Source: Candidatus Kuenenia stuttgartensis (GTDB lineage Bacteria > Planctomycetota > Brocadiia > Brocadiales > Brocadiaceae). From it: 32,000 bases of DNA. The notes beneath the pieces were generated by a model, which saw nothing but the letters and a program-made list of their open reading frames with translations, searched no databases and was not told the DNA's origin. The stretch spans positions 3,360,001-3,392,000 of the forward strand of contig NZ_LT934425.1 in the NCBI RefSeq assembly GCF_900232105.1, given 5' to 3'. A program made the translations under genes and the position numbers. Below, in pieces: positions 1,229 through 23,201 of this stretch. Numbering within the stretch: position 1 is the stretch's first letter; each line of letters opens with the position of its first letter.

Positions 1229-2374
1229 TTAAGTAAGCATAGACGAATATAGCGCTACATGCTGAAGTCCGATATTATCCCAGGAAAAACACTTTCCCAA
1301 CTCCATGGCGTTATCTGAGATTTTATTTCTCAGGACGGGGTCATGGAACAGTTTTAAAATGACATCGGACATGGCCTGATAATCGCCGATTGGCGTTAAA
1401 ATTACATTTTCCCAATTTTTTAATACCTCCGGGACATTTTCACCTATAGTGGTTACTACGGGGAGACCATGCCGAAGCGCAGTGAGAAATGTTCCCCGCC
1501 GCAAAGAGACTCCATCCTTAAATGGCAGAACGCAGGCCGTTGCATTCGTAAAATAAACAGATACCTGTTCAGGGGTACAATAGCCGGTAACCGTTATTGC
1601 ATGTTCAATGCCTAACTCTTTCATAACATGATGATCATCATCCGAAAGATAGGTTATCATTACCAATTTACATTTAACCCCATGTATGAGCAATTGTTTA
1701 AATGCATGGAATAAAGTAATAACGTCTTTTGACTTTGTGGCAAAACCAAAATAAACGATGTACGGTATTTCTGCTATGCGCCTGCTTGAAACAATGTTAG
1801 GAACCGGCTCAATGTTGGCGCCAATCGGGATGACCGTATATCGTCCTTTAAGCCAGGGAAACCACTTTAAAACGGCTGATGCTTCACGCTTGTCAGGGAA
1901 TATAATCTTATTTGAAAGGAGCAAGAAAAAGATCATTCCAATCTTGCGAAACTTATGTGCAATGCTAAATTCATGGATTGTAGCTATTCTACATAATTTG
2001 GGAAAGATCGCCCAACAAATAAGGGGAAGAAAATTGGGCAACAGAAACCGCCGATATTCCCGCGTAGGATACTGGATATGGATGATGTCCGGTTTCATTG
2101 CCTTCAGGAATCGAACAAATCGAAATGTATTATACAATTGCCAGGATTTAACGACTTTGCATACAGTTATTGAAGGCTGAGGGGGCTTGATTTCAGGCAG
2201 ATCAGTTGTCAGTACAGAAACGTGTATCCCTTGTCTGGCTAACTCCTGCGACAATCTTGCGGTATAATCGCCTACACCGCATGGCGCATCAGGAAAGCTT
2301 CCGGTGATCATAGCCACTTTGTAAGCCTTGGATTTTGTAGCAGATGTATGAGAATTATTTACCACTAAAGACAT
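1229..2374 (-). CDS. GT-B fold glycosyltransferase (GT4-like)
   Basis: N-terminus KVAMITGSFPDAPCGVGDYTARLSQELARQGIHV. C-terminal half has LPFKDGVSLRRGTFLTALRHGLPVVTT, in the position of the E-x7-E region. Confidence 0.8.
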   Translation of the reverse strand: MSLVVNNSHTSATKSKAYKVAMITGSFPDAPCGVGDYTARLSQELARQGIHVSVLTTDLPEIKPPQPSITVCKVVKSWQLYNTFRFVRFLKAMKPDIIHIQYPTREYRRFLLPNFLPLICWAIFPKLCRIATIHEFSIAHKFRKIGMIFFLLLSNKIIFPDKREASAVLKWFPWLKGRYTVIPIGANIEPVPNIVSSRRIAEIPYIVYFGFATKSKDVITLFHAFKQLLIHGVKCKLVMITYLSDDDHHVMKELGIEHAITVTGYCTPEQVSVYFTNATACVLPFKDGVSLRRGTFLTALRHGLPVVTTIGENVPEVLKNWENVILTPIGDYQAMSDVILKLFHDPVLRNKISDNAMELGKCFSWDNIGLQHVALYSSMLT

Positions 2375-2401
2375 AGCTATTCCTGTAAATCTGTTTATAA
2401 C

Positions 2402-3409
2402 TTAAAAACATAATTTTAATACCTTTCCGTAGCCGGATAGTTTTTCCGCTGCCGTTTTTGCATTTGCAGGGTACAGTGTCAGCCAAAGAATAATGCGAAG
2501 CAGTGATCTTGAGAATAGTATCATCTTCAGAAAAATCAACTGGTGTGGCATGTGTTTTCTGAAATAATAAAAGAGGCTTTTGTGATAGTGGATGATTTTT
2601 TCTGCATTATAAAGTTCAGGGCTGCTTGCCCCGCCAAAGTGTATGAGTCTGGCCCCGGGCAGAAGGTATATCTCATACCCGGCATTTCTCAGCCGTAGGC
2701 ACAGGTCTGTTTCTTCAAAAAAGAGGAAATAATTGCTGTCAAAATTTCCCGCTCTATCGAGTGCTTCTCTGCGTACAAAGAGGCACGACCCCATAGTCCA
2801 GTCAACCTTCAATACTTTTGAACGGTCGATATGGCTCATCTTATGCAACCCAAAAAAACGGCTGTTTGGGAAGAGACGATCAAGGAAAAATGATTCACTC
2901 AGAATATTTTTAAGATTGGGAAAGGTATTGCCGCTCAACTGGAGTGTTCCGTCAGGATTAAGTAGCGTGGGGCCAATTGCACCTGCTTCCTGATGTTTTT
3001 CCATGAATGCCAACAGGCTTTTCGTCATGCCTGGAATCACTTCTGTATCGGGGTTTAAAAAGAGGACATACTCAGAGCATGATTTTTGCAGCGCCGTGTT
3101 GCACGCCTGCGCAAAACCATTATTGGTTTTGTTTTCGATAAGAATTATCTCCGGAAATTGTGTTTTGATATACGATACGGTTTGGTCGGAGGATGCATTG
3201 TCCACGATGATGATTGAATGAGAAAAAGCGCTGAGATCGCTTTTAAGGCTTTTCAGGCAATTAGCTATCCATGAATACGCATTCCACGTTACGATAATAA
3301 CAGAGATTTTACCTGTATGCTGTTGTTCAGGAGTAATATCTTTTTCCATAGAGATTGTTGACCAATAAGGGGCGAGGTGTGACGGATTATTTTTCAGTGA
3401 TAGTATCAT
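2402..3409 (-). CDS. GT-A fold glycosyltransferase (GT2 family)
   Basis: ISVIIVTWNA...IIIVDNASSDQT...NNGFAQACN...YVLFLNPDTEV are the GT2 core motifs. An alternative ATG at 3349 would remove the 23-nt overlap with the upstream gene. Confidence 0.8.
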   Translation of the reverse strand: MILSLKNNPSHLAPYWSTISMEKDITPEQQHTGKISVIIVTWNAYSWIANCLKSLKSDLSAFSHSIIIVDNASSDQTVSYIKTQFPEIILIENKTNNGFAQACNTALQKSCSEYVLFLNPDTEVIPGMTKSLLAFMEKHQEAGAIGPTLLNPDGTLQLSGNTFPNLKNILSESFFLDRLFPNSRFFGLHKMSHIDRSKVLKVDWTMGSCLFVRREALDRAGNFDSNYFLFFEETDLCLRLRNAGYEIYLLPGARLIHFGGASSPELYNAEKIIHYHKSLFYYFRKHMPHQLIFLKMILFSRSLLRIILWLTLYPANAKTAAEKLSGYGKVLKLCF

Positions 3410-4262
3410 AGCCTAGTTTTTTCATGATATCTTCTTCCTTTATGTGCCGGTAAATTTCCAGTAGGGCGCTGTCCTTTATAAAGGTAAATTTATTCCCGGA
3501 TAACACGTTTTTTGAAACGGCATTTATTAATGGAGCATCAGCGGTCAGGCCGATAAAGCGTACAATTTTGCCAAGGGTGTCCGCCGGATTGTCCAGAAAT
3601 GTTTCATATCGTACATGGAGTATGTTTCCATTCCATTCCTCTTCTAAGGAAAGCGCTTTTTGTACATAAACCCTCCACAATTGAATCCCTTCATAAATAT
3701 TCTGAAGCCTTACGGAGTCCTGGTAGAAAGCCTTTCCTAATACCAAACGTTCTTTAAAAAAACACTTCCAGTTATGCTTAAAATTATTTTGAATCTCAAT
3801 TTCTCTTTTTCTTGCGCTGTTTGCAACGTCAAGGGGATTTCTGTAAATATGCAATAGCTTTGGATGGGGGAAGATATCTTTCCAGATATCAATGGTAAAG
3901 GTGTTTCTTGGGTCTTTCCATCCCCATGGAAAATCAATATGCCGGATGTCGCCATAGCGCAAAAATTTTCCAAAACCTAAATATTCAAACCTTCGCATAC
4001 CCTTCAGGTGCTGCTTTAGCACGTGAAGAACCCTCTCCTTAAAGACGGCATTTATAAAGGTGAAATTATGCGGATTATCCCATGTGGCATTTGCCTGGCG
4101 CAGCAGCCAGTCGTTTAATTTGAAAAAGAACAAAGATTCATCATTTTCCTGTTTTTTTGCGCCGATAAATAGTCCCAGTTGTTCCAGCAGTGAAGCAAGC
4201 ATTGTGGTGCCGGAACGGTGCATACCCATGATTATTACTGGTTGAAGAGCGGTTTTATTCAT
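3387..4262 (-). CDS. sulfotransferase
   Basis: 5'-PSB P-loop-like motif GMHRSGTTML at the N-terminus. 3'-PB-like motif IYRNPLDVANS. Confidence 0.8.
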   Translation of the reverse strand: MNKTALQPVIIMGMHRSGTTMLASLLEQLGLFIGAKKQENDESLFFFKLNDWLLRQANATWDNPHNFTFINAVFKERVLHVLKQHLKGMRRFEYLGFGKFLRYGDIRHIDFPWGWKDPRNTFTIDIWKDIFPHPKLLHIYRNPLDVANSARKREIEIQNNFKHNWKCFFKERLVLGKAFYQDSVRLQNIYEGIQLWRVYVQKALSLEEEWNGNILHVRYETFLDNPADTLGKIVRFIGLTADAPLINAVSKNVLSGNKFTFIKDSALLEIYRHIKEEDIMKKLGYDTITEK

Positions 4263-5263
4263 TATTTTAATTTCAATACTTTTTCAAACACCAACAAATG
4301 TTCTTTTGCGCTTTTTTGCCATGAAAAATGTTGCGCGTGGTCCAAGCCCTTTTTTCTTAATGCATCTTGTAAGGAAACATCTTCTCTCAAACGCTGCATT
4401 GCGTGAGTAATATCATGTTCTGAACGCGGATTTACGAGAAGGGCGGCGTCGTTTGCTATTTCGGCGCATGCAGTGGCGTTTGATGTTATTACCGGACAGC
4501 CGCATGCCATTGCCTCTAAAACAGGCATGCCGAATGTTTCATGCAGAGAAGGGAATATAAATCCAATTGACCCTCTGTACCATTTTGCCAATTCATGGGG
4601 AGAGCACTTTTCCTGAATATGCCTTATTCCTTTAACGCGGATGGTTTTTGTGTATCCGGGCGCTATCATGATAAGTTCCGGCTTTCTGTTATTTGAAAGA
4701 TTTTCATATGCACGGATAATCCTGTCAACATTTTTTTTTGGACTATATTGTGAGACATGGAGAAAATAGGGTTCTGATACCTTTGCAATGTCGCCATTCT
4801 GGTGAAACGTCTCATGATCGACGCCATGGTAGATAGGGTGTATCTTTCCGCGAGGAAGCGCAAAGACATGCGACACTTCCCGTACGGCAAATTCTGAAAC
4901 GGTAATGATTGCGGAGGTCTTTTCCCGAAACCATTTCCACGCGGATAATGTTATACGGTTTTTCAATTTGCATCTTATTACCTGCAAAAAAGAGGTGTTA
5001 ATTTCATTCCATTTCATGGTAAACAGCGCCGCCCCGTGAACGGTTGCAACAATTGTTGTGCGCGAGTTTTTATATATATCAGGCGGAGTATGGTTTCCCG
5101 CCAGGCCAGGTTCCCAGATGATATCGCAATTTTCAGGGGCAGGGCCGGATTCCGTAAAGGGAGTGATCTCTACGCCAAGGATTGATAACTCCCTCCTGAT
5201 ACTTTCGCGGTATGTTTCCAGACTAAAAGGGATTTTATGGCGGGTAAGGACGGATATTTTCAT
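4262..5263 (-). CDS. GT-B fold glycosyltransferase (GT4 / Glycos_transf_1-like)
   Basis: PSLHETFGMPVLEAMACGCPVITSN is the classic GT4 C-terminal motif. Its stop overlaps the downstream sulfotransferase start by 1 nt. Confidence 0.85.
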   Translation of the reverse strand: MKISVLTRHKIPFSLETYRESIRRELSILGVEITPFTESGPAPENCDIIWEPGLAGNHTPPDIYKNSRTTIVATVHGAALFTMKWNEINTSFLQVIRCKLKNRITLSAWKWFREKTSAIITVSEFAVREVSHVFALPRGKIHPIYHGVDHETFHQNGDIAKVSEPYFLHVSQYSPKKNVDRIIRAYENLSNNRKPELIMIAPGYTKTIRVKGIRHIQEKCSPHELAKWYRGSIGFIFPSLHETFGMPVLEAMACGCPVITSNATACAEIANDAALLVNPRSEHDITHAMQRLREDVSLQDALRKKGLDHAQHFSWQKSAKEHLLVFEKVLKLK

Positions 5264-5278
5264 TTAATTCGCAAATGA

Positions 5279-6175
5279 TTAATGTGCACACCAATAGTTT
5301 AAATCTCTTCCCAGCATATCGCTCAACTGTTTGATTTCAGGTTTAAATTCATCCTGCAATCTCTTTCGTAATTCCGGTCTCATGGGAATACGGGATTCGT
5401 ACCGGATATTGAAATTCCACATGCCCTTTCTCATTCTGCTGCGAATTGCGTGGGGTATTAATCTTCTTGACATATTCAGTAAAAAGGGAGGGGGGTTTTG
5501 CAGTAAATTTCTTAAAAAAACGCTTTTTGCGCGTTTGTTTGGGTTAATCAATTTTGTATCATTGCTGATATCTTCATTCACCCCCAAAAAGCGGAAGGTA
5601 TCCTGTAAGGATGTTTGGGGATTATTCTTTATATCGTCAAAAATAATGAATTGAATGGCTTTCTTATCAAATATTTCAAAATATCGTTTTATCTGTTGCG
5701 TGTATTTTGCCGTTTCACGATATAAAAGACCTTCCACAGGATAAGCGTTTTTCGGTAAGAATAACCCTTTTTTCCTCAAATCCTCTTTTCTAAGGGCATC
5801 TTCAAAATCAATAATATCCTCGCATCCATTATACAGGTATTGACTGTGTAAGGAGTATATCATATCGACGGGATTTCTAAGCATAATGATAATTTGCGCC
5901 GAAGGGTAAAAAGCCTTTATCTCACGCGCCGCCTGTTTTGAATAAAGATACCATACGGACGCCTCTCCTATTCTCCTTTCATTTTCCGCGTTTTGAAAAA
6001 AAGACAGATAGGTTGTTGTGTCTCTGACAAAATCAGGATGATATATATCCGTCCCGAAATGATGCAATTCCTTTCTCTCCGGCATGAAGATTTCAGGGTG
6101 GTTTTTAAGGTGGCTATATAAAAATGTCGTCCCGCATTTTGGTGCGCCCACGATAAAAAAATCAGGTTGTTTCAT
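5279..6175 (-). CDS. sulfotransferase (Sulfotransfer_1-like)
   Basis: FFIVGAPKCGTTFLYSHL (5'-PSB) and IIMLRNPVDMIYSLHS (3'-PB). Confidence 0.85.
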   Translation of the reverse strand: MKQPDFFIVGAPKCGTTFLYSHLKNHPEIFMPERKELHHFGTDIYHPDFVRDTTTYLSFFQNAENERRIGEASVWYLYSKQAAREIKAFYPSAQIIIMLRNPVDMIYSLHSQYLYNGCEDIIDFEDALRKEDLRKKGLFLPKNAYPVEGLLYRETAKYTQQIKRYFEIFDKKAIQFIIFDDIKNNPQTSLQDTFRFLGVNEDISNDTKLINPNKRAKSVFLRNLLQNPPPFLLNMSRRLIPHAIRSRMRKGMWNFNIRYESRIPMRPELRKRLQDEFKPEIKQLSDMLGRDLNYWCAH

Positions 6176-6190
6176 AATGAATAAAGGCTT

Positions 6191-8044
6191 TTAAAAATCA
6201 TCATCGTCCAGGTCGTCATCAAGGTCGAAGTCATCGGCTCCTTTTTCAGTGGTTCTGTTATATTCCGGCATTTGTATTTCTTTGATGGCGTCCTGATTCC
6301 TTCTAAACCATTCTATTGACCCCAAACCTATAATTTCGCCATGCCCCATTGCCGCTATAACCTCTTCCCCGTAATTGCCTGCAGCGACATAGTCTTCAAA
6401 GAAGACGATTGTTGTTATTTTATCGGAACAGTGGTTAAGCATATAATTTCCTGCGCTATCCGGCAAGGTTCTTAACCCCTTTTCCGCAATCATTATCCAC
6501 TGACAATTTGATTGCAGCGCATTAAGTAATGCCAGCGAAAATTTCAGGCACGGGTCTATCCTTCTCCAAATATCAGGCGATAAAGATGTATCCAAGTTGT
6601 CAGGCATCTGTGCGTTGTATTTATCCCACAGGCCCATTTTTGTTAAATCTTTTTGTAAATTATCGGTGGTGTATTTTTCTGAGAAACCCAGGGATTCCCG
6701 TAAAGAACGGTTCGGGAGAAATTCATAATCCGCAGTTACAAACCACATGGATTCAAGGGCGGTTTTTGTCTTCTCCACAGAATGCCCGAGTATGCAATCG
6801 GTCAAAAATCCCAATGTATAACGATTTAATGTAACTGTGCTCAGGAGTCCCATACGGCTTCCTGCCTTTAGCTCCCCGTATTCAAGAGAACCTTCTATTG
6901 CAGGATGAGTAGTTGTTGGGACAATGATATAGCTTGCCGGTGGAACTGCCCCTGTCTTTGGGGTAATGACTGTAGCGCAGAGAAACTGGAAATATCTTCT
7001 GATTTGCGGATAAAGGCGGTTGATACCGGTTGCCTTTCTGTTTACCTGCCGCATATTTGTCAACATAAAGCGCAGCGCTATTAAATAGACAATTAATTCG
7101 CCCCACCCTTTGCCTTCAGAAATAATAGATCTGCCCATGATGAGCAATATTAAAAAAATCGCCAGTGCGAAGACAATGTTGCTGATTAACTGGCTATACT
7201 CCAGGGATCTCAACCTTCCCTCATAGGCATCGTGAAATTTCTTTATTGCCCCGGAGGAAAAAAGGGTTTTCCCCAGCCATTGTTCGTTTTCATGCGCTGA
7301 GACGTGCAATGTCTTTTGCCGCTGAATAATTTTTAAATATTCCCTGCTTGTTCCTTTTGCGAATTTTTCCAGTGATGACGAATTTCTCGCCGCATAAACA
7401 CTTACTTTATAAAGAAATATGGCAGAAATGCCCATAAGGGTAAAGTTTAAAAGTGTTAAAAGCGTGTTGATGTATAATAATGTAGCAATGGCGACCATGA
7501 AAGTGACCAAAGGTATGATCGTATCAAGTATCATCCATAATGCCCTGCTGCAGAACCTTGAATCCCTTCTTGCCAGCCGCACGATAATTTTGTCGTTGCT
7601 GAAATCCTGCTCAAGGGATGTTCCGATTTTAAAGCCTGAGCCGAAGTGCAGAAATATTCTCTTTGTACAAAATTCTTCGTATTTTCTCCTTAGTTTTAAG
7701 CCATTAGAGTTTGAAAAATAAATAGCCCATGCGGCGATCAACAGCGAGAACAGGATTGATAATCCGCATAAAATAAGAAATACATTAGATGTTCGTGCAT
7801 TGAATTCATAGTGGAGGAGTTTTATGGTGCTGCCGCTTTGCATAGCCTTGGCGTAATAAATTGCAAGGCCAATAGTCCATACCTGAAATGATACCCCGAT
7901 AAAATTGGTAAAAAGGATGAGGAATGATTCTTTCCTGAACCGCCAGATAGAATCTCCTATTAGCCATTTAAGCACCAAACGGTACTGATCGAAGGTTTTC
8001 ATAAAACCGTCGTATCGTGTCTTTAAAAAGCAGTAGATGTTCAT
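6191..8044 (-). CDS. ABC type-I-exporter-like membrane protein with degenerate nucleotide-binding domain and poly-acidic C-terminus
   Basis: The N-terminal half has about 6 hydrophobic helices. The C-terminal half aligns by eye to an ABC NBD, but Walker A is STVTLNRYT, the signature is LSPDI, Walker B is WIMIAE, and no H-loop His is present (FFEDY). It ends GADDFDLDDDLDDDDF. Confidence 0.6.
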   Translation of the reverse strand: MNIYCFLKTRYDGFMKTFDQYRLVLKWLIGDSIWRFRKESFLILFTNFIGVSFQVWTIGLAIYYAKAMQSGSTIKLLHYEFNARTSNVFLILCGLSILFSLLIAAWAIYFSNSNGLKLRRKYEEFCTKRIFLHFGSGFKIGTSLEQDFSNDKIIVRLARRDSRFCSRALWMILDTIIPLVTFMVAIATLLYINTLLTLLNFTLMGISAIFLYKVSVYAARNSSSLEKFAKGTSREYLKIIQRQKTLHVSAHENEQWLGKTLFSSGAIKKFHDAYEGRLRSLEYSQLISNIVFALAIFLILLIMGRSIISEGKGWGELIVYLIALRFMLTNMRQVNRKATGINRLYPQIRRYFQFLCATVITPKTGAVPPASYIIVPTTTHPAIEGSLEYGELKAGSRMGLLSTVTLNRYTLGFLTDCILGHSVEKTKTALESMWFVTADYEFLPNRSLRESLGFSEKYTTDNLQKDLTKMGLWDKYNAQMPDNLDTSLSPDIWRRIDPCLKFSLALLNALQSNCQWIMIAEKGLRTLPDSAGNYMLNHCSDKITTIVFFEDYVAAGNYGEEVIAAMGHGEIIGLGSIEWFRRNQDAIKEIQMPEYNRTTEKGADDFDLDDDLDDDDF

Positions 8045-8096
8045 AGTGTAATTGAATTAAGGAATGCAGAGAAAATGGTGAAAGGGGGAGGGCGTT

Positions 8097-8882
8097 TTAT
8101 TTTTTATATCCCCAGAAATCGCAGTAGTGCGGCATTAAGTCGATAATTTTGGTTGCCTCGGCAACTAACCTTTTATCCGGCTCCTGCTGCCAGCGATGTA
8201 CCCTTTTGTCAGTGATGATGTTGCCATGCAGTTCATATTCATCCTTCCGTTTAACGTTTGCCGCATTAAAACTCCCGATGTCTCCGGTATCTGGGATTTC
8301 ACTTTCCAGGAAGGTCTTTATTTTTTGATATATTTCTGTATTTGTACATAATTCTTCATATTTTACCTTTATGCAGTTTGCCTGTTCAGCCATTTCCAAT
8401 TGTCTGTTAAACTCATTGTTAAGGTGTGTCGATAATGTTTCCGGCGTTAATTCTTTTTTCCAGCTTCCCTTCCCCTGTTTTTTCCGGTAATAAAGGGAAA
8501 CATATATATCCCGTGGGTCTCTTGCCGTCAGGATAAACCGTATATCTTCAAATACCCGATAATAATTTTGCCAGCCGCGGTGATGGATTTCTTTTACTCC
8601 CAACTGATGGATGTGAGGGGCAAGGTTTGGCATTATTTGGCTTTTCAAGGCATTGATAAGGGAATTATCTTCTTCATCCATATATTTTTGTTTAAATGCC
8701 TTGAGATCAATCCCCAATTGTAAAAACAATGTATAATCATTTTCCTGTATGCGGAATTTGTTTTTCCCCAAATTCGGTTCCCGAAGAATAAAAGAATAAG
8801 GCAGCATGGTTAATGCCTCGCTGAGTACAGTGCCGCCTGTTCTTCTTAGTGAGGCGATGTAAATAAAGGGTTTTTTTTGCAT
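8097..8882 (-). CDS. sulfotransferase-family protein
   Basis: IYIASLRRTGGTVLSEAL (5'-PSB-like) and ILTARDPRDIYVSLY (3'-PB-like). Confidence 0.7.
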   Translation of the reverse strand: MQKKPFIYIASLRRTGGTVLSEALTMLPYSFILREPNLGKNKFRIQENDYTLFLQLGIDLKAFKQKYMDEEDNSLINALKSQIMPNLAPHIHQLGVKEIHHRGWQNYYRVFEDIRFILTARDPRDIYVSLYYRKKQGKGSWKKELTPETLSTHLNNEFNRQLEMAEQANCIKVKYEELCTNTEIYQKIKTFLESEIPDTGDIGSFNAANVKRKDEYELHGNIITDKRVHRWQQEPDKRLVAEATKIIDLMPHYCDFWGYKK

Positions 8883-8910
8883 AAAATTATATCTTTCTGG
8901 GTAACAGTTT

Positions 8911-8982
8911 ACCCACCCCTAAATCCCCTCCCAGGAGGGGACTTCTTGTATTCCACTCCTGGGAGGGGATTTAGGGGTGGGT
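8911..8982. repeat. perfect 27-bp-stem palindromic element (C-run/G-run family) with T7 on the plus side
   Basis: acccacccctaaatcccctcccaggag (8911..8937) is the exact reverse complement of 8956..8982. The loop is 18 nt. ttttttt follows on the plus strand only. Confidence 0.9.
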
Positions 8983-9043
8983 TTTTTTCAAATACCGGGA
9001 CAATCCGGAAGGGGTGAACTGTTGCCTTCCTGAAAATTATACA

Positions 9044-10078
9044 TCAACTACATGCCAATAATCCATGCACACATACGGCTATATCCTGAGAATATTGAAA
9101 AAGGTCGAGAAGCCTTCCTTTTTCAATATCAATTTCCGCAATAGTCGCAGGAGAAAATCCCACAAGGATACGGGATTGACCGGCAGGGCAAAGTCCGCGC
9201 AAGAATAACGGGCTTTTAATCTCATGCTCCATGTTTAAAAAACGTGAAAGAAAGTGAATGCCTCTGAAAAAAGAAGATGACTTTGCCTTAGAAGATTTGA
9301 TTGCAAGTTTGTATAGGGCATTTATTTCAGGAAAGTCTAATAAAGATAAAGCCTTGATCAATGTGCCGTTCTGTGTATAGACCATAACCCTTTTTCCCTG
9401 GGTGTCATTAATTATTATTTTATCTTCAAAAAACACAAGATTATGGCATCCTTTTATAGAGGGGTCTTCCAGTACAAGGCGATTTGTTGTCGTATTGTAA
9501 ACGGCGCCAAACCGGTTAAAGAGGACGTATAACTCATTATTATGCACTGCAACTGCATTTAAATGCGTATGGCTTGGCTGTCTGGCGGGCAAGACTTTAA
9601 GCCACAGCAGTCTGTTGTCGGTTGTTTTATCAATTTTCAACGGTGAGAGGGAAAAATGCTTCTGCAGGGTTGGACTTTCTCTTGCCCACCAGGATTTGAT
9701 GGAATTTCCTTGTGTATCAATGCCAATCACGCAATCTATTGCGGTGGAGGTAAGCCAAATTACGTTATCATGATGAAAAATCTCATGCAATCCGACAAAC
9801 AAATTATTTGATATCTTCCCTTTTGGCGTAAGGGAGAGGTCAAAAAGAATCAGGCTATGGTAGGTTGCGACATAGATTGTATCATTAATCTTAACGATGC
9901 CCCTTCCGCCCCTTGAGTTGCCCCGTGGGTTAGCATCGTCTTTTTCTGTAATAAGCGGATCGGTAGGCGATAACGTTGTTTTCCTCTTTATTTTTTTGGT
10001 TGCCCAGTCAATGCTAACCAATTCCCCGCCCTGTGCAATAGGCCCCTGTCGTACCACCGTGCTAAAATAAACTTCCAT
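9044..10078 (-). CDS. hypothetical protein, repetitive beta-strand (propeller-like) pattern; possibly TIGR03032/DUF4915-like
   Basis: Long intact 344-aa ORF inside the glycan cluster with repeated short hydrophobic strand/turn periodicity. FLRGLCPAGQSRILVGFS and HNLVFFEDKIIINDTQG are reminiscent of that family, from memory only. Confidence 0.4.
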   Translation of the reverse strand: MEVYFSTVVRQGPIAQGGELVSIDWATKKIKRKTTLSPTDPLITEKDDANPRGNSRGGRGIVKINDTIYVATYHSLILFDLSLTPKGKISNNLFVGLHEIFHHDNVIWLTSTAIDCVIGIDTQGNSIKSWWARESPTLQKHFSLSPLKIDKTTDNRLLWLKVLPARQPSHTHLNAVAVHNNELYVLFNRFGAVYNTTTNRLVLEDPSIKGCHNLVFFEDKIIINDTQGKRVMVYTQNGTLIKALSLLDFPEINALYKLAIKSSKAKSSSFFRGIHFLSRFLNMEHEIKSPLFLRGLCPAGQSRILVGFSPATIAEIDIEKGRLLDLFQYSQDIAVCVHGLLACS

Positions 10079-10122
10079 TCACTTATATCTCCGCAAAAAA
10101 GTATTTAAACCAAAACAACATT

Positions 10123-11280
10123 TTACAGGCCAAAGGCGTCTTTTGCATGTTTTATCGTATTTTCCCATGAAAAGATTTTTTGTGAGGCCACCGTATTTCT
10201 TGCATATGCTTCGACCGTTTCCGGATCGGATAATTCCGCTATTGCACGTGTAAGGTCTTCAACATCAGGGTCAAAGTAGGGAATACCGGAAGCGGTGTAG
10301 CCTGTCTTGTGTGATTTAACGAGGATGCCATTATACCGGTCTTGTATCACCTCATTATGGGGCGGGATGTTGTTGGTGATTGTGGGTAATCCGAAAGAGA
10401 CTGCCTCATAAAAATGCTGTCCTAACCCTTCCCACCTGCTTGGTGCGAGGCACACATGGCATGATGAAAACAAATCATAATATTCCTTTGCGGATAAATC
10501 TTCTTTAATGTGTATAATTCTTTTATCAGTAAAATCATCAATATGTTCCGTATTTGACCGCTCCCCCTGCGCCTTGATAATGAGCCTTATATTGGGATTT
10601 TGTACTTGTGTAAAGGCCTTGACTGTTTTTCGTATGGGCTTTCTGCCGCCCTGAAAGCCGCCAGGAAAATAAAAATAAATGGCGTCTCCCCGTTTTTTCG
10701 ACACGGAATTAAGAAGTTCCGGATGGCATCCCCACGGCACCCACGGGCTGTCAACGCCAAAGTCGGCGTATCGTGTGCATTCGCATTTGTTTAAAGAATA
10801 AATTATGTCATATGCGTCGATGGCGCCTTTCATGGGGCGTATGCCTGAATTACTTAATAAACACCTTCCTGCCATTTTCCACATAAATGGTTTCAACGGT
10901 ATTTTTTTATAACCGGTTAGGTGTTGTATCCCGAAACTTTCCCAGATAAATCTTCCGATGGTCTTTATCCCCATTGCGCGTAACGCCGCAATTTCCTTAA
11001 ATTGCAAATTTGAATCAAAGAATATCAGATCGAGTGAATTGTGAACAGCCCATTCTTTGTATTCTTTTAAGGGGATTACAAAATTAGAGGCATGGGCAAC
11101 GCCTTCCTGTTCCCATACATCTGATTTGGCAATGAATTTTGGCAGGGCGTCATTATCCCTTGTGGGCCTTGCAAGCACAAAGGTCTTGTGTCCAAGTTCA
11201 TCTAATATAGAGCGCAGATAACGTGAAACAGTAGCCTGTCCTCTGTTTAACCAGGTGCTGACTATGCCGATATGCATCAT
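10123..11280 (-). CDS. GT-B fold glycosyltransferase, paralog A
   Basis: MMHIGIVSTWLNRGQATVSRYLRS...CLAPSRWEGLGQHFYEAVSFGLPTITNN. Start moved to ATG 11280 by alignment with paralog B. The tracked start at 11355 adds 25 unaligned residues. Confidence 0.75.
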   Translation of the reverse strand: MMHIGIVSTWLNRGQATVSRYLRSILDELGHKTFVLARPTRDNDALPKFIAKSDVWEQEGVAHASNFVIPLKEYKEWAVHNSLDLIFFDSNLQFKEIAALRAMGIKTIGRFIWESFGIQHLTGYKKIPLKPFMWKMAGRCLLSNSGIRPMKGAIDAYDIIYSLNKCECTRYADFGVDSPWVPWGCHPELLNSVSKKRGDAIYFYFPGGFQGGRKPIRKTVKAFTQVQNPNIRLIIKAQGERSNTEHIDDFTDKRIIHIKEDLSAKEYYDLFSSCHVCLAPSRWEGLGQHFYEAVSFGLPTITNNIPPHNEVIQDRYNGILVKSHKTGYTASGIPYFDPDVEDLTRAIAELSDPETVEAYARNTVASQKIFSWENTIKHAKDAFGL

Positions 11281-11411
11281 TTTGCCTTTCTTTAATTTTA
11301 CTATCGTCAAACAAATCGTAAAAGCTGAGGATACGTTAATGCCGGCGGTGTGCAATGAGTTCTCTTACTTTCGGATGTTTTATTTTTTATATGACTGTGC
11401 CGCAGTTGTTC

Positions 11412-11846
11412 TCAAGAGGTTTTTAATATGAATTTCAAAATATAATTGCAATATTTTGCATATTGATTTATAGCATCTCCGACTGTTTTATAGATAATAC
11501 TTTTATCTAAATTGTTATATTCATGAACAATTGCATTTCTAAATCCGGCGCTTTTCGAGATTTCTTCGGCAAAATCCCTCTGCAAAACATTCAAGTCAGC
11601 AAGGAGTAAGAATGTGTCTCTATATGTCTTTGGCGCTTCCATATCCGGTCTGGCCAATTCAGAAATAAGGTGCTCATTAATATCGATAGCCCTGCCAATG
11701 ATCTCCATTAAGATATTTTTTAGCGCCGCATACTTTATAAAATCTTCCGCAATCTGGCTAATTGTAAAATCATAGAATATCTTTAATCTTTCCAAATCAC
11801 GGGTAATTAAATTCAGTTTTTCTTTTAAAAATTCTTTATCAATCAT
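11412..11846 (-). CDS. hepT: HepT (DUF86, HEPN-domain) RNase toxin
   Basis: Contains the R-x4-H-x-Y HEPN motif (FRNAIVHEYNNLD). Sits directly downstream of an MNT gene. Confidence 0.85.
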   Translation of the reverse strand: MIDKEFLKEKLNLITRDLERLKIFYDFTISQIAEDFIKYAALKNILMEIIGRAIDINEHLISELARPDMEAPKTYRDTFLLLADLNVLQRDFAEEISKSAGFRNAIVHEYNNLDKSIIYKTVGDAINQYAKYCNYILKFILKTS

Positions 11847-11854
11847 CTGAAATA

Positions 11855-12259
11855 CTAAACGCCTAAATTTTGCAGCCGTTTCTTAATAAGCACTTCTTTT
11901 AACCTTAAAAGGTCTTGGCTATCATAATAATCGCGGAAGGCATAGGATTTAAAAGAATTATAATCATAACTCTTACCGTAAAGCAGAACTCCTTTACTCA
12001 TTACCTGATAACGAAACAGGGAATTGGTATTATGAAGGGATTTTACATCTATTTCCTTAACTTTAAATATTTCAGCAAATTCGTTATTCAAATCAATCAG
12101 ATTTTCAAAGGTGATGGGTCTTGTTCCCAAAACAGCAATATCAATATCACTTTCTTTACAAGTTCGCCCGCTTGCATGAGAACCATAAAGTATAACTAAC
12201 AAGAGGTTGTATTTCCTGGCAATATGATCAATTTCAGGCTTTGACATTAAAATGTTCAT
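11855..12259 (-). CDS. mntA: MntA minimal nucleotidyltransferase antitoxin
   Basis: LYGSHASGRTCKESDIDIAVL matches the G-S-x(n)-D-x-D pol-beta NTase motif. Only 8 nt separate it from hepT. Confidence 0.85.
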   Translation of the reverse strand: MNILMSKPEIDHIARKYNLLLVILYGSHASGRTCKESDIDIAVLGTRPITFENLIDLNNEFAEIFKVKEIDVKSLHNTNSLFRYQVMSKGVLLYGKSYDYNSFKSYAFRDYYDSQDLLRLKEVLIKKRLQNLGV

Positions 12260-12278
12260 CAGTGGCCTCTCTCTCTCT

Positions 12279-13439
12279 TTATAATCTAAAAGTCTTTTTT
12301 ATATGTTCGGTGGTGGTATTCCATGAATATTTTTTTTGCAATTGTATCGTATTGTTTGAGAGTTCCGTTATTTTATTTACGTCAGACAGTTCCTCTATTG
12401 CCCTTGCAAGGTCATCCACATCAGGGTCGTAGATGGGTATTCCCGATTGTTTATAACCAATTTTTACCGATTTTACAAGCAGCCCATTCTTTCCGTCTTC
12501 AATGACTTCATTGTGAGGGGGGATGTTATTGGTGATTGTGGGCAATCCGAAGGAGATTGTTTCATAAAAATGTTGCCCTAAACCTTCCCATCTGCTTGGC
12601 GCCAAACATACATGACAGGAGGAGAATAAATTATAATATTCCTTTGCGGGCAGGTCTTTCACTATTTTTATGAGTCGTGTATCCGGGAAGTCTTCAATAT
12701 TCTCGGTCGTTGTCCTTGTTCCCTGTGCTTTAATAATCAGGCGAATGTCAGGATTTTTTACCTTCATAAAGGCTTCAACCGTCTTTCTCATCGGTTTTCT
12801 CGCCCCCTGAAAACCGCCCGGAAAGAAAAAATAAATAGCATCTTCACGTTTTTGCGGTTTTACTGCAAGTAGTTCCGGATGGCAGCCCCATTGGATCCAG
12901 GGGCTGTCAATCCCAAAGTCTTTGTATCGCGCCTGTTCACATTTTGTGAGAGAATAGACGATATCAAATGCCTCCTTTGCACCAATGACGTCCTTGTTGG
13001 TAAAGCACTCCCGCATATACCGGCAAAAAGCCTTCATATCCCTTGTCCGAAGGATTGTTTTAAGGCCTTTTGCATGTTTTTCTCCAAAACCTTCCCAGAC
13101 GAAACGGCCAAAGGTTTTAATGCCCTTTGACCGCAGATATTTAATCTTGTCATACTCATTGTTTTCATCAAAAAAAATGATCTGGATGGCATTTTTTTCT
13201 ATCCAGGAGAGATATTCTTCTAAGGGGATGAAAAAACGAGACGCCCTGGTAACGTCCCCCTGGTTCCATACGTCAGCCGTAGAGATAAAATTGGGCAAAT
13301 CATCGGTATCGCTTGTGGGGCGGGCAAGTACGAATGTGTGATGTCCCAAATTGTCAAAAACAGACCTGAGATAACGGGACACCGTGCTTTGTCCCCTATT
13401 CCACCAGGAGCTAACTATTCCTATGCTGAGTTTTTTCAT
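12279..13439 (-). CDS. GT-B fold glycosyltransferase, paralog B
   Basis: MKKLSIGIVSSWWNRGQSTVSRYLRS...CLAPSRWEGLGQHFYETISFGLPTITNN. ATG at 13439 forms an ATGA overlap with the stop of the upstream sulfotransferase. Confidence 0.75.
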   Translation of the reverse strand: MKKLSIGIVSSWWNRGQSTVSRYLRSVFDNLGHHTFVLARPTSDTDDLPNFISTADVWNQGDVTRASRFFIPLEEYLSWIEKNAIQIIFFDENNEYDKIKYLRSKGIKTFGRFVWEGFGEKHAKGLKTILRTRDMKAFCRYMRECFTNKDVIGAKEAFDIVYSLTKCEQARYKDFGIDSPWIQWGCHPELLAVKPQKREDAIYFFFPGGFQGARKPMRKTVEAFMKVKNPDIRLIIKAQGTRTTTENIEDFPDTRLIKIVKDLPAKEYYNLFSSCHVCLAPSRWEGLGQHFYETISFGLPTITNNIPPHNEVIEDGKNGLLVKSVKIGYKQSGIPIYDPDVDDLARAIEELSDVNKITELSNNTIQLQKKYSWNTTTEHIKKTFRL

Positions 13440-14392
13440 CGGCGAAAAAAATGGGTAAGGTTGTTGTACCATCGTTGCGTGTTCATAAGCTTAAGACAAT
13501 CGTGATATCCTGCCTGTTCAAGTGCTTCTCTCATATTGAGGAGGGTAAAACCTTTTCTCCAGTAATTACTGGATGGGGCAAATAGCGTTACCTTTTTTTT
13601 CACATGTTCTGTCGTCCATTGAAGAACGTTACCGGGTAATGTTCTTTCCATAAAATCATAGAGCAATTTCAGTGTTTCATGCGGTTCCGCTATTAAATCC
13701 TCATTGCGTAATAAAAGAAAATTTTTCCCGAATGTTTTCCTGCCTGCCTCGTGTGTTTGCTGAAAGGTATATTTCCAAATCATTAAAACCTTCAAATAGT
13801 CGTTGCAATTTTTCATATGGGCATATTCGGGTGTTTTTATCAATAATTTATAAAGTTCGTAACTTCCCCACGGATTCCTTTCGATGATGGTTTTGAAAAA
13901 GGTTTTTTTCGTAGAATACTTTTCTCTGTGTTTCTGTTCTCTGCCAAAAATATACGACGTGGTGATTGCACGCGGGTCCCGAACGATAAGGATGAGTTTT
14001 GAATCCGGGTCGATTCTCTTGAGTACCGGGATTTTGGTGTACATTCGTGTAAATTTAATAACGGTATCTTCAGAGCGGGAAATCAAATATTTTATGTAAT
14101 CAATGCAATATTGCGGTAAATCTCTTTCGAGTTCCAGGGAGGCGTCCCTTGGTGTGCCATAATTTAACAAATCGATGTCTTTTAATAAGGGGTATGTTTT
14201 TTGAAAATCTTCCCTGCATTTTCTGATCTTTTCAAAAAGATCAACATTTTGTATGCCGCTACCCCCTCCGTGTTTTGGAATTCTACCTGCGGCAAAAGGT
14301 TCATAATATAAATCAAGATTCTTGTCCTGACACAATATATCATAAACAATTGTTGTTCCTGACCGGCGCATTCCCTGTATAAAAACATTCAT
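13436..14392 (-). CDS. sulfotransferase
   Basis: MNVFIQGMRRSGTTIVYDIL (5'-PSB) and LILIVRDPRAITTSY (3'-PB-like). Confidence 0.8.
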   Translation of the reverse strand: MNVFIQGMRRSGTTIVYDILCQDKNLDLYYEPFAAGRIPKHGGGSGIQNVDLFEKIRKCREDFQKTYPLLKDIDLLNYGTPRDASLELERDLPQYCIDYIKYLISRSEDTVIKFTRMYTKIPVLKRIDPDSKLILIVRDPRAITTSYIFGREQKHREKYSTKKTFFKTIIERNPWGSYELYKLLIKTPEYAHMKNCNDYLKVLMIWKYTFQQTHEAGRKTFGKNFLLLRNEDLIAEPHETLKLLYDFMERTLPGNVLQWTTEHVKKKVTLFAPSSNYWRKGFTLLNMREALEQAGYHDCLKLMNTQRWYNNLTHFFRR

Positions 14393-14630
14393 TTACGATC
14401 CCCCCCCATGAGTGGAAAAGAATGAGAGACAAAACAGCAGCCGCCTGCGTGTATTACTTTTATTTTAGTGTATGTAAAATCAAGGCGGCAGTATATCAAA
14501 ATACGGAAGAGAAGGAAACGGAAAATAGAGAGATAGTTGAAGGGGAAGCAGTGGGGGGAGACAGTCGGCTGTTGGCAATCTACAGCCTGCAATTTGCCGG
14601 TTGCCGATTGTATTTATTTTGTTTTCACAT

Positions 14631-15788
14631 TTACATAATTACCAGTTCCGCATGCAATGCGCCGGCTTTTTTAATGGCCTGGAATATCGAGATGAGGTCC
14701 CTTGGGGTTACGCCCAATACATTAAGTGCACGCGCAACGTCGGAAATAGAGACGCCTTCCTGCAGTACGGTCAATCTGCTTTTTTCTTCGCTTACCTGTA
14801 TATCCGTGCGTGCCATATCCCTTGTTTCACCTGCACCCAGCATATTTGGCTGTGAAACCTCCTTTTCTTCCTTGATCGTTATACTGAGGTTTCCATGGGC
14901 AACTGCAACCGTGGATATTCTTACATGCTGGTCTGCAACAATGGTGCCGGTGCGTTCATTAATAATTATCTTAGCGACGCTGTCGGTTTTAATGTAAAGT
15001 TCTTCCAGGGTAGAGATAAATTTTACTATAGTCTCATCGGACTGAAACCCCTGCGGAGGTCTTATATTGATAACCGCCGCATCAACCGCAACTGAAGAAT
15101 TTGGATAAATATTATTAATAAGCTCTGTTACCCTTGTGGAGGTGGTGAAATCAGGGTCTCTCAGCACAATATTCAGTGCCTGCCCCTTCAAAAAGGTGGT
15201 GTGAATCTCCTTTTCAACGATCGCTCCGTTTGAAATATGGGCGGTAGTGGATATGTTTTTCCTGACAGACTGTGCATCGCCTTTGATGCTGTAACCGCCT
15301 ACGGTAAGCGCGCCCTGAGCTACGGCATACACTTCATTATCAGCGCCCTGCAATGCGGTCTGAAGCAGCACGCCGCCTTCCAGACTTTTACAGTCACCAA
15401 TGGAAGAAAGCGTTATGTCCAGCTTATCGCCCGGCCTTGCAAATGCAGGGATATTCGTGGTGACCATGACCACCGCGGTGTTTTTGGAAAAGAAGTCTTT
15501 TTCATCCATTAGCACCCCCAGTTTTTCAAATATATTTACTGCCATTTGGCTGGTAAGTTTAAAGATTTGACTGTTATCGCCTGTTCCCTGAAGTCCGATA
15601 ACTATGCCATATCCGTAAAGCTGGTTTTCACGCACGCCCTGAACATACGCAATATCTTTAATTCTGACTGCGGCCTGTACGTGATGTACAAAGAGGCTTA
15701 TCAGTGTTGTGCCTGCGATAATAAAAGACGTTATAACACACTTCAACATAAACCTTATTGTAAACTGTTTTTTTCCCATAGCATTCAC
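14631..15788 (-). CDS. flgI: flagellar P-ring protein FlgI
   Basis: Signal peptide followed by RIKDIAYVQGVRENQLYGYGIVIGLQGTGD. C-terminus is ISDVARALNVLGVTPRDLISIFQAIKKAGALHAELVIM. Confidence 0.95.
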   Translation of the reverse strand: MNAMGKKQFTIRFMLKCVITSFIIAGTTLISLFVHHVQAAVRIKDIAYVQGVRENQLYGYGIVIGLQGTGDNSQIFKLTSQMAVNIFEKLGVLMDEKDFFSKNTAVVMVTTNIPAFARPGDKLDITLSSIGDCKSLEGGVLLQTALQGADNEVYAVAQGALTVGGYSIKGDAQSVRKNISTTAHISNGAIVEKEIHTTFLKGQALNIVLRDPDFTTSTRVTELINNIYPNSSVAVDAAVINIRPPQGFQSDETIVKFISTLEELYIKTDSVAKIIINERTGTIVADQHVRISTVAVAHGNLSITIKEEKEVSQPNMLGAGETRDMARTDIQVSEEKSRLTVLQEGVSISDVARALNVLGVTPRDLISIFQAIKKAGALHAELVIM

Positions 15789-19918: not shown

Positions 19919-20332
19919 TTATTTATGAGGTTTGTTTATGGAAATGATATTCAACTTTTCCACAATTTTAAAATGCTTTATATTGTTGGTGAGAAGGGTT
20001 AAATTATAACAAAGGCAAGTTGCAGCTATTAAAAGGTCGAAGTCACCTATTACTATTTTAAGTTTTCTCAGTTTTCCCCGCTCTTTTCCGAAGATTTTAC
20101 ATATTTCATCTTCAAGTCCCAGGATCAAGACTCCGGTTAGAAAATCGTCTAAAGCTTTTTTATCTCCTTTAGGATTCGTTGAATAATAAACACCTTCGTA
20201 TAATTCTGCTAAAGAGATAACGCTAATGGCCAGTCCTTCTTTTCTAAGAGCCACAAGCCGTTTAACTATCTCTTCTTGTCCATTGAGATAATGAATAATC
20301 CAGTCGGTATCGATAAGATATGAGGGTGTCAT
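19919..20332 (-). CDS. vapC: VapC PIN-domain toxin
   Basis: N-terminal YLIDTDWIIHYLNG gives the first PIN acidic residue. 137 aa. Shares a 4-nt overlap with the upstream antitoxin gene. Confidence 0.85.
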   Translation of the reverse strand: MTPSYLIDTDWIIHYLNGQEEIVKRLVALRKEGLAISVISLAELYEGVYYSTNPKGDKKALDDFLTGVLILGLEDEICKIFGKERGKLRKLKIVIGDFDLLIAATCLCYNLTLLTNNIKHFKIVEKLNIISINKPHK

Positions 20333-20565
20333 AATTTTGGTTCATTTCTGGTGGATACAAGGCGATCCGCATAAATATCCTTCATTAATTTTTCTGCATC
20401 AATGGTTCCTTTCCAACTTCCCGCGGATTTTTCAAAGGCATCTTCTTCTTTCCCAGAAGGAATTTCGATTATGGTTATAGTAATTTCCTTTCCTTCCGCA
20501 ATGTCTATTTTCTCCATAGGCTCAATTATTCCCCTGGAAAATCTGGCTTTAATTGTTTTTCCCAT
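20329..20565 (-). CDS. DUF104-type antitoxin partner of VapC
   Basis: 78 aa. ARFSRGIIEPMEKIDIAEGKEITITI resembles the AF2212/DUF104 antitoxin family. It is coupled to vapC. Confidence 0.65.
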   Translation of the reverse strand: MGKTIKARFSRGIIEPMEKIDIAEGKEITITIIEIPSGKEEDAFEKSAGSWKGTIDAEKLMKDIYADRLVSTRNEPKL

Positions 20566-22631: not shown

Positions 22632-22653
22632 TGTGTGCCTCCTTTCATTTTTA

Positions 22654-22701
22654 GATTTACGATTTACGATTTTTTTATCTGTGTAATCTATGCAATCTGT
22701 G
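22654..22701. repeat. tandem 7-mers (GATTTAC x2.5) followed by three 9-mers (WWATCTRTG)
   Basis: gatttac gatttac gattttt, then ttatctgtg taatctatg caatctgtg. This lies directly 5' of the flgE SD on the minus strand. Confidence 0.85.
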
Positions 22702-23190: not shown

Positions 23191-23201
23191 AGGTAATCTC
23201 C

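Follow-up and report, generated by a model that had tools for sequence, protein, structure and literature searches.

A sulfotransferase-dense gene cluster of Candidatus Kuenenia stuttgartiensis and its probable role in making a sulfated surface or matrix glycan

What does an anaerobic ammonium-oxidizing (anammox) planctomycete make with four sulfotransferase genes interspersed among glycosyltransferase genes, and does their position beside flagellar ring genes mean anything? The array that raises this question occupies positions 1229-14392, on the minus strand, of a 32,000-nucleotide (nt) stretch of the Candidatus Kuenenia stuttgartiensis genome (the window). An earlier interpretation made from the DNA letters and their open reading frames (ORFs), here called the sequence-only reading, described a sulfotransferase-dense glycan pathway joined to the flagellar genes and offered two products: a sulfated glycan of the flagellum, or a sulfated surface polymer co-regulated with motility. 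The analysis reported here indicates that anammox bacteria probably use the cluster to make a heavily sulfated glycan of the cell surface or matrix, with no relation to the flagellum.

Sulfotransferases and glycosyltransferases of the cluster

All four putative sulfotransferases, ST-A to ST-D, passed the Pfam gathering thresholds of both Sulfotransfer_3 (27 bits) and Sulfotransfer_1 (22 bits), scoring 78.4 and 47.1 bits (ST-A), 51.8 and 58.8 bits (ST-B), 68.8 and 53.8 bits (ST-D) and, weakest, 36.2 and 26.5 bits (ST-C). The profile search proposed with the sequence-only reading thus came out in its favor, and the two signatures for binding 3'-phosphoadenosine 5'-phosphosulfate (PAPS) on which that reading rested proved to be present and aligned. 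In an alignment of the four proteins, the 5'-phosphosulfate-binding (5'-PSB) loops HRSGTT, PKCGTT, RRTGGT and RRSGTT conform to the pattern [KR]-x-G-[TG]-T near the N-terminus and share columns in which G and T are invariant, and the 3'-phosphate-binding (3'-PB) motifs RNPLD, RNPVD, RDPRD and RDPRA share columns with invariant R, P and a serine eight residues after the arginine (R141, P143 and S149 in ST-A numbering). Within the ST-D family, R9, R10, S11, G12, T13 and T14 as well as R138, P140 and S146 were invariant across 30 aligned sequences. Pairwise identity among the four was only 21-25%; they are therefore not recent duplicates. By these sequence criteria the four ORFs are bona fide PAPS-type sulfotransferases of four distinct subfamilies. 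The genes have carried sulfotransferase annotation since 2006.

ST-B was the sole member with a close solved relative, the bacterial sulfotransferase of PDB entry 3rnl (E 6e-45), and it also matched NDST1 and 3-OST-1 from the PSB to the PB region (E 2e-6 to 2e-5). With NDST1, HS3ST1 and 3rnl it shares a PK-GTT 5'-PSB loop, a KE-H-F segment and an RNP-D---S 3'-PB motif. The animal enzymes NDST1 and HS3ST1 resemble it at low identity and over the PAPS-binding half only, and the substrate of ST-B cannot be read from the comparison because the acceptor-binding region does not align with theirs. A single-sequence PDB search with ST-A gave no match.

Five glycosyltransferases and four sulfotransferases stand in one tightly packed same-strand array (Table 1), an arrangement that favors a glycan product. 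Pfam confirmed every one of the five glycosyltransferases recognized by the sequence-only reading: the Glycos_transf_1 paralogues GT1a and GT1b (61% identical to each other), one GT2 and two of GT4 type. The ORFs lie at the coordinates that reading had given, with overlapping stop and start junctions at 3387-3409 and 4262 and a further one at 13436-13439 or 13436-13472, according to which start codon is used. Several K. stuttgartiensis assemblies, the complete genome CP049055.1 among them, encode an identical ST-D, and outside the hook genes the window is 99.75-99.96% identical to those loci. Apparent strain-level truncations of ST-C (a 236-residue call) and of the membrane protein (a 447-residue call) were dismissed as differences in the starts picked by gene callers, the DNA being intact.

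Table 1. Genes and intergenic elements of the cluster, in minus-strand order
Feature	Position in window	Strand	Evidence
ST-D, sulfotransferase, 318 aa, RRSGTT / RDPRA, tyrosylprotein sulfotransferase (TPST)-like Sulfotransfer_3, first gene of the array	13436-14392	-	Pfam
GT1a, Glycos_transf_1 glycosyltransferase; annotated alternative start 13439	12279-13472	-	Pfam
MNT (11855-12259) and HepT (11412-11846) toxin-antitoxin pair, between the GT1 paralogues	11412-12259	-	Pfam Polbeta 72.8 bits, HepT-like 86.9 bits
GT1b, Glycos_transf_1 glycosyltransferase	10123-11355	-	Pfam
Beta-propeller, predicted cytoplasmic, unnamed family, 344 aa, KsCSTR_39750	9044-10078	-	AlphaFold2
ST-C, sulfotransferase, 261 aa, RRTGGT / RDPRD	8097-8882	-	Pfam
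Membrane protein, predicted type-IV ABC-exporter fold (pseudo-ABC), 617 aa, CAJ70871.1; annotated alternative start 8002	6191-8044	-	AlphaFold2, Foldseek
ST-B, sulfotransferase, 298 aa, PKCGTT, KELHHF, RNPVD, heparan-sulfate-sulfotransferase-like Sulfotransfer_1	5279-6175	-	Pfam, PDB match
GT4 glycosyltransferase	4262-5263	-	Pfam Glycos_transf_1 82.7 bits, Glyco_transf_4 38.7 bits
ST-A, sulfotransferase, 291 aa, HRSGTT / RNPLD	3387-4262	-	Pfam
GT2 glycosyltransferase	2402-3409	-	Pfam Glycos_transf_2 85.5 bits
GT4 glycosyltransferase, final cluster gene inside the window	1229-2374	-	Pfam
Intergenic region flgI/ST-D: palindromic CAATCG/GATTG-type element (14562-14606) and conserved 61-nt leader (~14473-14533)	14393-14630	-	

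The cluster is conserved beyond the species. K. hertensis carries it in the same order at roughly 77-88% protein identity (80% for ST-A, 85% for GT1a and 88% for GT1b) with a fifth sulfotransferase, and without the toxin-antitoxin insert, the GT2 gene and the terminal GT4 gene (1229-2374), so that sulfotransferases and glycosyltransferases stand at 5:3. The GT2 gene occurs in K. stuttgartiensis and in Kuenenia sp. Bin_40. In K_DeepCast, a lake planctomycete, gene order and content are kept at about 80% protein identity. Brocadia retains a core of GT1, ST-D, ST-C, a propeller protein and the membrane protein at 49-59% identity; its GT1 is a single copy about 51% identical to GT1a, and its ST-C (58%) adjoins the propeller gene. 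Neighbors of the Brocadia core encode a 700-residue Sulfotransfer_3 protein, additional GT4 enzymes, a hexapeptide acyltransferase, a Bac_transf priming transferase and a sigma-54 regulator, and a gene for a Wzy_C protein overlaps the membrane protein gene. ST-D is thus conserved in both K. hertensis and Brocadia.

These data bear on the idea that the sulfotransferases, all or some of them, have acceptors other than carbohydrates, such as tyrosines of secreted proteins or peptides or a small metabolite, and are mixed with glycosyltransferases only incidentally. Tyrosylprotein sulfotransferases were the closest PDB matches to the ST-D family profile, and public databases name the proteins putative thyroid hormone, hydroxysteroid or flavonol sulfotransferases, although these names, like that of "ABC transporter ATP-binding protein" for the membrane protein, are automatic. 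Such acceptors are nevertheless highly improbable: gene order with the glycosyltransferases is conserved across Kuenenia and Brocadia, ST-B groups with carbohydrate sulfotransferases of heparan sulfate, the cluster has no precursor-peptide or secondary-metabolite gene, and in other phyla the pairing of propeller and sulfotransferase described below is accompanied by Wzx flippases.

The pseudo-ABC membrane protein and the beta-propeller

Two further products of the cluster belong to no named family. The 617-residue membrane protein had no Pfam match even at E<=10, ABC_membrane and ABC_tran included, and a single-sequence PDB search with it was empty. Its AlphaFold2 model (pLDDT confidence score 72) shows six long transmembrane helices followed by a C-terminal alpha/beta domain resembling a nucleotide-binding domain, and the top Foldseek matches of the model were the ATP-binding cassette (ABC) proteins MsbA, TM287/288, ABCB7, PCAT1 and BmrA (E ~1e-12 over ~600 columns). 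The predicted structure therefore agrees with the earlier description "ABC-exporter-like". The overall fold is that of MsbA, PglK and BmrA, and a family profile had weak but significant sequence homology to BmrA/MsbA (E 4e-4). Active type-IV exporters possess a Walker A motif (GxxGxGKS/T), an LSGGQ signature, a Walker B motif (hhhhDE) and an H-loop, whereas in this family all are replaced, and conservedly so. LNRYT is the conserved family consensus at the Walker A position, and the LSGGQ, LDEAT (Walker B DE) and AHRLST (H-loop histidine) segments of BmrA face conserved residues that do not match. Because Walker A, Walker B, signature and H-loop are all replaced, the ATPase site is predicted to be dead and ATP hydrolysis unlikely; judged by the model, the protein is an ABC-exporter fold without a working ATPase, or pseudo-ABC.

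Only 37 homologues of the pseudo-ABC were found among 5.8 billion sequences, mostly in anammox metagenomes. Three non-anammox homologues inspected were all in glycan clusters, two of them with sulfotransferases: those of a Coleofasciculus cyanobacterium and of an unidentified metagenome-assembled genome (MAG) are accompanied by two sulfotransferases each, and the most distant one lies among glycosyltransferases. PglK genes also sit in a glycan cluster, a setting to which that of the pseudo-ABC may be likened. We regard the protein as a putative translocase for a sulfated lipid-linked glycan.

The presence of the lipid A flippase MsbA among the closest folds suggests another product, a sulfated glycolipid or lipo-oligosaccharide (compare sulfated lipopolysaccharide [LPS] core or O-chain, Nod factor and mycobacterial sulfolipid) whose carrier lipid would not be undecaprenyl phosphate and which would be flipped in MsbA fashion. 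The Kuenenia cluster has no priming phosphoglycosyltransferase, Wzx or Wzy, two of the sulfotransferases gave NoeE-like local matches that were weak and far under the cut-off, and Kuenenia makes ADP-heptose for LPS. Similarity to MsbA, however, is generic to all type-IV exporters, and Pfam revealed no acyltransferase or lipid-synthesis gene in the cluster, while that of Brocadia includes Bac_transf and Wzy_C, which are typical of undecaprenyl-linked repeat units. We consider a glycolipid product unlikely. Together with the Wzy_C and Bac_transf proteins of Brocadia, the MsbA-like protein points to a lipid-carrier route to the cell surface.

The 344-residue protein encoded between GT1b and ST-C matched no Pfam or NCBIfam family. 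The best Pfam hit was DUF4915 (E 0.18, or 0.0075 with a homologue), far under its 35-bit cut-off; a literature search found no paper on DUF4915 or TIGR03032, and a single-sequence PDB search gave no match. The AlphaFold2 model (pLDDT 90.7) consists of all-beta blades of repeated four-stranded sheets, confirming the propeller-like fold suspected earlier, and its PDB matches were generic (NHL domains, BamB, WD40 and designed propellers; TM-score ~0.5). The protein begins directly with a beta-strand, with no signal peptide by inspection. In 42 diverse homologues 28 residues were invariant, many of them Arg, His, Asp or Glu, including R10, N50, R52, R56, H98, E99, E134, D154, R156, H172, N174, H212, R294 and H338. 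This pattern of conservation suggests an active site or ligand-binding site.

The propeller family is large, with 1,201 representative clusters at E<=1e-3 (176 at E<=1e-30) in many phyla. A genome-collection scan with a 13-sequence propeller alignment yielded 51 loci. From 39 loci of other bacteria (MAGs labeled Aminicenantes, Anaerolineae, Bacteroidota, Clostridia, KSB3, Verrucomicrobiota, Planctomycetota and others) we collected the crude ORFs, 140 in all, that stand no more than two genes from the propeller; 27 matched Sulfotransfer_3, 19 Sulfotransfer_1 and 11 the Wzx-type Polysacc_synt family, and a few were glycosyltransferases. The propeller's neighbors are enriched in sulfotransferases. 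An independent iterative search, seeded by the four window sulfotransferases and covering 41 loci, showed that 24 of them carry a sulfotransferase-like ORF no more than 3 kb from the propeller; the density was 1.75 per 10 kb close to the propeller and 0.41 per 10 kb at a distance of 6-10 kb. Among distant propeller relatives (<=31% identity) this association was mostly missing. Within 10 kb of the propeller, sulfotransferase-like ORFs numbered six in Aminicenantes, five in Cytophagia, four in KSB3 and four in Salinivenus MAGs, and these dense loci often carry a Wzx flippase. Since unrelated phyla hold four to six sulfotransferase-like ORFs beside the propeller, sulfotransferase-dense glycan clusters are widespread in uncultured bacteria, and the Kuenenia cluster is not a one-off curiosity. 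The belief behind the sequence-only reading that bacterial carbohydrate sulfotransferases usually occur singly per pathway is outdated, given these loci and the two sulfotransferases of the synechan cluster xss (PMC8205485). Propellers of other organisms (P0435 and P0436, ~600 aa, and P0453, 908 aa) are also found fused to an N-terminal FkbM-type methyltransferase or a C-terminal GT2 domain, and the fusions therefore place the propeller among glycan-tailoring activities.

The junction with the flagellar genes

On the minus strand, fliK, flgD, flgE, a VapBC pair, flgF, flgG, flgA, flgH and flgI (14631-15788) precede a gap of 238 nt, the spacing noted earlier, and then ST-D, GT1a, MNT and HepT, GT1b, the propeller gene, ST-C, the pseudo-ABC gene, ST-B, GT4, ST-A, GT2 and the second GT4, before toxin-antitoxin genes at the start of the window. 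This arrangement underlies the proposal of a sulfated glycan of hook, rod or filament, or of a surface polymer transcribed or regulated together with the flgF-flgI operon. The cluster shares the strand of flgI, the short gap has no clear terminator, and of seven K. stuttgartiensis-type assemblies examined six retain the adjacency, as does Bin_40 (94% identity), where the cluster adjoins flgI with ST-D deleted.

Elsewhere the adjacency is absent. In K. hertensis the neighbors of the cluster are rnpA/yidD and a radical-SAM gene, and flagellar genes are missing from the surrounding 10 kb; none stands beside the cluster in K_DeepCast (L017) or Brocadia (L008-L010, L018-L020) up to 10 kb on each side, contig permitting. 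The sequence-only reading had asked whether the cluster always neighbors flagellar genes and had named unlinked relatives, together with independent transcription, as grounds for giving up the connection. Relatives with an unlinked cluster exist, and on this synteny we rejected the flagellar link. Of that reading the sulfotransferase-dense glycan pathway, with its sulfotransferases interleaved among glycosyltransferases, is supported, and the functional tie to the flagellum is not.

The junction itself is rich in repeats and prone to rearrangement. In the K. stuttgartiensis-type assembly GCA_900696675.1, similarity ends at 14616, 15 nt past the flgI stop, and gives way to GGDEF and AddB genes, a break that could be a rearrangement or a misassembly and that abuts the palindromic CAATCG/GATTG element. 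In Bin_40 this element has grown into tandem arrays of CAATCGG/TGTGGAT-type units at the site of the ST-D deletion; the arrays flank an insert of about 200 nt (L015, ~5990-6450). The 61-nt leader is kept at 93% in Bin_40, directly upstream of the first cluster gene, and so travels with the glycan genes. A promoter and terminator consensus scan of the gap between flgI and ST-D found nothing above shuffled background. Phase variation at a G8 tract just upstream of the ST-D start was considered and discarded, the tract being identical in six assemblies.

Gene content argues in the same direction. Flagellin glycosylation is a cytoplasmic protein route and not a lipid-carrier pathway, and an exporter-like membrane component is unsuited to it; the pseudo-ABC and the Brocadia Wzy_C and Bac_transf proteins fit a lipid carrier instead. 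The flagellin glycosylation islands of Campylobacter, Helicobacter, Pseudomonas and Clostridium likewise place glycan genes beside flagellar genes, but the window ORFs scanned include no flagellin, Maf-type or nonulosonic-acid (Pse/Leg-type) gene, and linkage here is not conserved. A flagellar product or co-regulation with the flgF-flgI operon is thus very unlikely. The adjacency occurs in K. stuttgartiensis and its nearest relative alone, at an unstable junction, and looks like a recent accident and not a functional link.

Other features of the region are recorded here in their own right. The pair of HepT, an RNase, and MNT, a nucleotidyltransferase, inside the array was not mentioned in the sequence-only reading; it has no counterpart at the same site in K. 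hertensis or K_DeepCast and is a passenger outside the pathway. One strain (L001/L011) has a HepT call split in two, with pieces of 45 and 98 aa. Outside the window start lie further small genes, one extra Glycos_transf_1 gene, a second MNT/HepT pair and leuS. A 46-nt inverted repeat (arms 326-371 and 1322-1367, 87% complementary) flanks a HicAB module (717-1215) and may be an insertion or inversion scar, and the 5' end of a HigA-like helix-turn-helix ORF (318-680) is a copy of the 3' end of the terminal GT4 gene (1229-2374). With the VapBC pair (PIN toxin and AF2212-like antitoxin, 19919-20565) between flgF and flgE, the HicAB and HigA genes and two MNT/HepT pairs, the region is unusually rich in toxin-antitoxin modules. 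The hook genes flgE, flgD and fliK (20817-24139) are 83-95% identical to those of strain CSTR1, whereas the flanking 17 kb is 99.75% identical; FlgE has 532 residues in this strain versus 577 in CSTR1, and the hook region is hypervariable or recombined. A group II intron reverse transcriptase/maturase (RVT_1 and GIIM, 25903-27201) separates the flagellar genes from a lipoprotein-like ORF. An ORF at 27768-28499 has a lipoprotein-like N-terminus and a weak, sub-threshold CsgG-like match (20.5 bits against a cut-off of 20.8); a coiled-coil lipoprotein-like protein is the product of the next downstream ORF on the minus strand (28538-29059).

Route, product and significance

Family assignments, PAPS motifs, folds, conservation, synteny and the co-occurrence of genes are established directly; from them we infer a lipid-carrier chemistry, an order of steps, a translocase role for the pseudo-ABC, a role for the propeller, and what the product is and where it goes. 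On the cytoplasmic side of the inner membrane, five to six glycosyltransferases would build up an oligosaccharide bound to a lipid carrier, following a priming transferase presumably encoded elsewhere in Kuenenia and within the cluster in Brocadia. Four cytoplasmic PAPS-dependent sulfotransferases of different subfamilies may each sulfate a different position, with the propeller working beside them as a tailoring enzyme or acceptor-binding partner. Because PAPS is cytoplasmic, sulfation must precede export. The MsbA/PglK-like pseudo-ABC would then carry the polyanionic intermediate outward through the membrane, replacing the Wzx flippase that serves in other phyla. Polymerization of the unit, or its transfer to a final acceptor, would fall to a polymerase or ligase of Wzy_C type (encoded within the Brocadia cluster, presumably elsewhere in Kuenenia); that acceptor could be an extracellular polysaccharide or capsule, an O-antigen or possibly a protein. 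The sulfotransferase-to-glycosyltransferase ratio of 4:5, or 5:3 in the conserved K. hertensis set, implies very high charge density.

Several observations weigh against a sulfated surface or matrix glycan. Three of the four sulfotransferases are TPST-like Sulfotransfer_3 proteins whose acceptors are not readable from sequence. Loss of its motifs means that ATP-driven export by the pseudo-ABC is not expected, and its role may differ from that proposed. Among window ORFs of at least 120 aa scanned with Pfam profiles for missing pathway functions, none matched Wzx, Wzy, Wzz, the outer membrane export and co-polymerase (OPX/PCP) proteins, a priming phosphoglycosyltransferase or PAPS-synthesis enzymes. 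Enzymes of nucleotide-sugar synthesis likewise had no match, in agreement with the absences listed by the sequence-only reading, and Polysacc_synt, Wzy_C, Wzz, Poly_export and Bac_transf were missing from the same ORFs and from 8 kb outside the window start. A literature search found no sulfated glycan described from Kuenenia, and the known S-layer O-glycans of this organism consist of methylated N-acetylhexosamine (HexNAc), nonulosonic-acid and heptose chains without sulfate (PMC5088730; 10.1101/2020.12.03.409086).

The S-layer suggests a further possibility: the cluster could make a protein O-glycan in sulfated form, carried for instance by the S-layer protein Kustd1514 and overlooked by earlier positive-mode mass spectrometry. 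The Wzy_C family includes O-oligosaccharyltransferases. Six sugars of the S-layer glycan may be set against six glycosyltransferases of the region, counting the one outside the window, and an X-type HexNAc glycan is common to Kuenenia and Brocadia (10.1101/2020.12.03.409086). Precursor masses of S-layer glycopeptides, however, are made up of HexNAc, methyl and a unit of 174 Da and show no +80 Da (PMC5088730), and because these masses are fully explained without sulfate the known O-glycans are unlikely to be the product. The S-layer glycan is also heavily methylated, whereas the cluster has no methyltransferase, and an untargeted glycoproteomics survey reported no sulfated species (10.1101/2020.12.03.409086). 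A sulfated protein O-glycan is accordingly quite unlikely, and we return to a surface or matrix polymer.

Sulfated glycosaminoglycan (GAG)-like polymers have been reported in anammox granules' extracellular polymeric substances, with producers and pathways described as unknown (Boleij 2020, through its citation in PMC10483923 and PMC7356697). Chemical assays detect such polymers in other wastewater granules too, and few candidates came from BLAST searches that used reference sulfotransferases (PMC10483923). K. stuttgartiensis makes UDP-glucuronic acid, UDP-N-acetylhexosaminuronic acid and other precursors, according to the literature. The cluster is a candidate source of the granule polymers. 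Our literature search found no paper that discusses these Kuenenia cluster genes or sulfotransferases in the Kuenenia genome.

Among known systems the xss cluster for synechan of Synechocystis sp. PCC 6803 likewise combines sulfotransferases of distinct subfamilies with many glycosyltransferases; sulfation is presumed to take place on a cytoplasmic lipid-linked repeat unit, and the product is an anionic matrix polysaccharide (PMC8205485). It differs in its complete Wzx/Wzy/PCP set, of which the Kuenenia window has no member, and in its two sulfotransferases to eight glycosyltransferases, against four to five in Kuenenia; neither a pseudo-ABC nor a propeller is among its listed genes (PMC8205485). 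It belongs, moreover, to a cyanobacterium and not to a planctomycete, and the product of the Kuenenia cluster is a putative one. Bacterial sulfated polysaccharides were long considered limited to cyanobacteria, and the authors of the xss study believed exopolysaccharide clusters with sulfotransferases to be essentially cyanobacterial (PMC8205485). Closer in phylogeny is Pontiella sulfatireligans F21 (Kiritimatiellae, Planctomycetes-Verrucomicrobia-Chlamydiae [PVC] superphylum), in which a PF13469 sulfotransferase among GT2 and GT4 genes marks a putative sulfated GAG cluster (PMC7356697). That cluster has been linked to a chemically detected sulfated GAG-like exopolymer, the connection of genes to product being equally unproven there; it has one sulfotransferase plus methyltransferase, aminotransferase, YfhO and TuaB genes, and no pseudo-ABC or propeller was reported (PMC7356697). 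The Kuenenia/Brocadia cluster is set apart by its sulfotransferase density, the lack of Wzx, the pseudo-ABC and the propeller, and is neither a complete Wzx/Wzy cluster, nor an active ABC exporter system, nor a flagellar glycosylation island.

Collectively, these results provide a concrete candidate locus, conserved in Kuenenia and Brocadia, for the sulfated matrix polymers of anammox bacteria, and make the question of their origin testable; they also remove the idea of a sulfated bacterial flagellar glycan as unsupported. Two uncharacterized families, the propeller and the ATPase-dead ABC fold, are likely parts of sulfated-glycan machinery and possible markers for mining sulfated-polysaccharide pathways. 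We tentatively suggest, as a possibility short of a likelihood, that the two are previously unrecognized components dedicated to sulfated-glycan biosynthesis which jointly make the matrix polymer of anammox granules. If so, the propeller would be a new enzyme, or an acceptor-presenting partner that carbohydrate sulfotransferases need, the ATPase-dead exporter would be a new type of translocase for polyanionic lipid-linked glycans, and together they would make the GAG-like sulfated polymer that holds anammox granules together.

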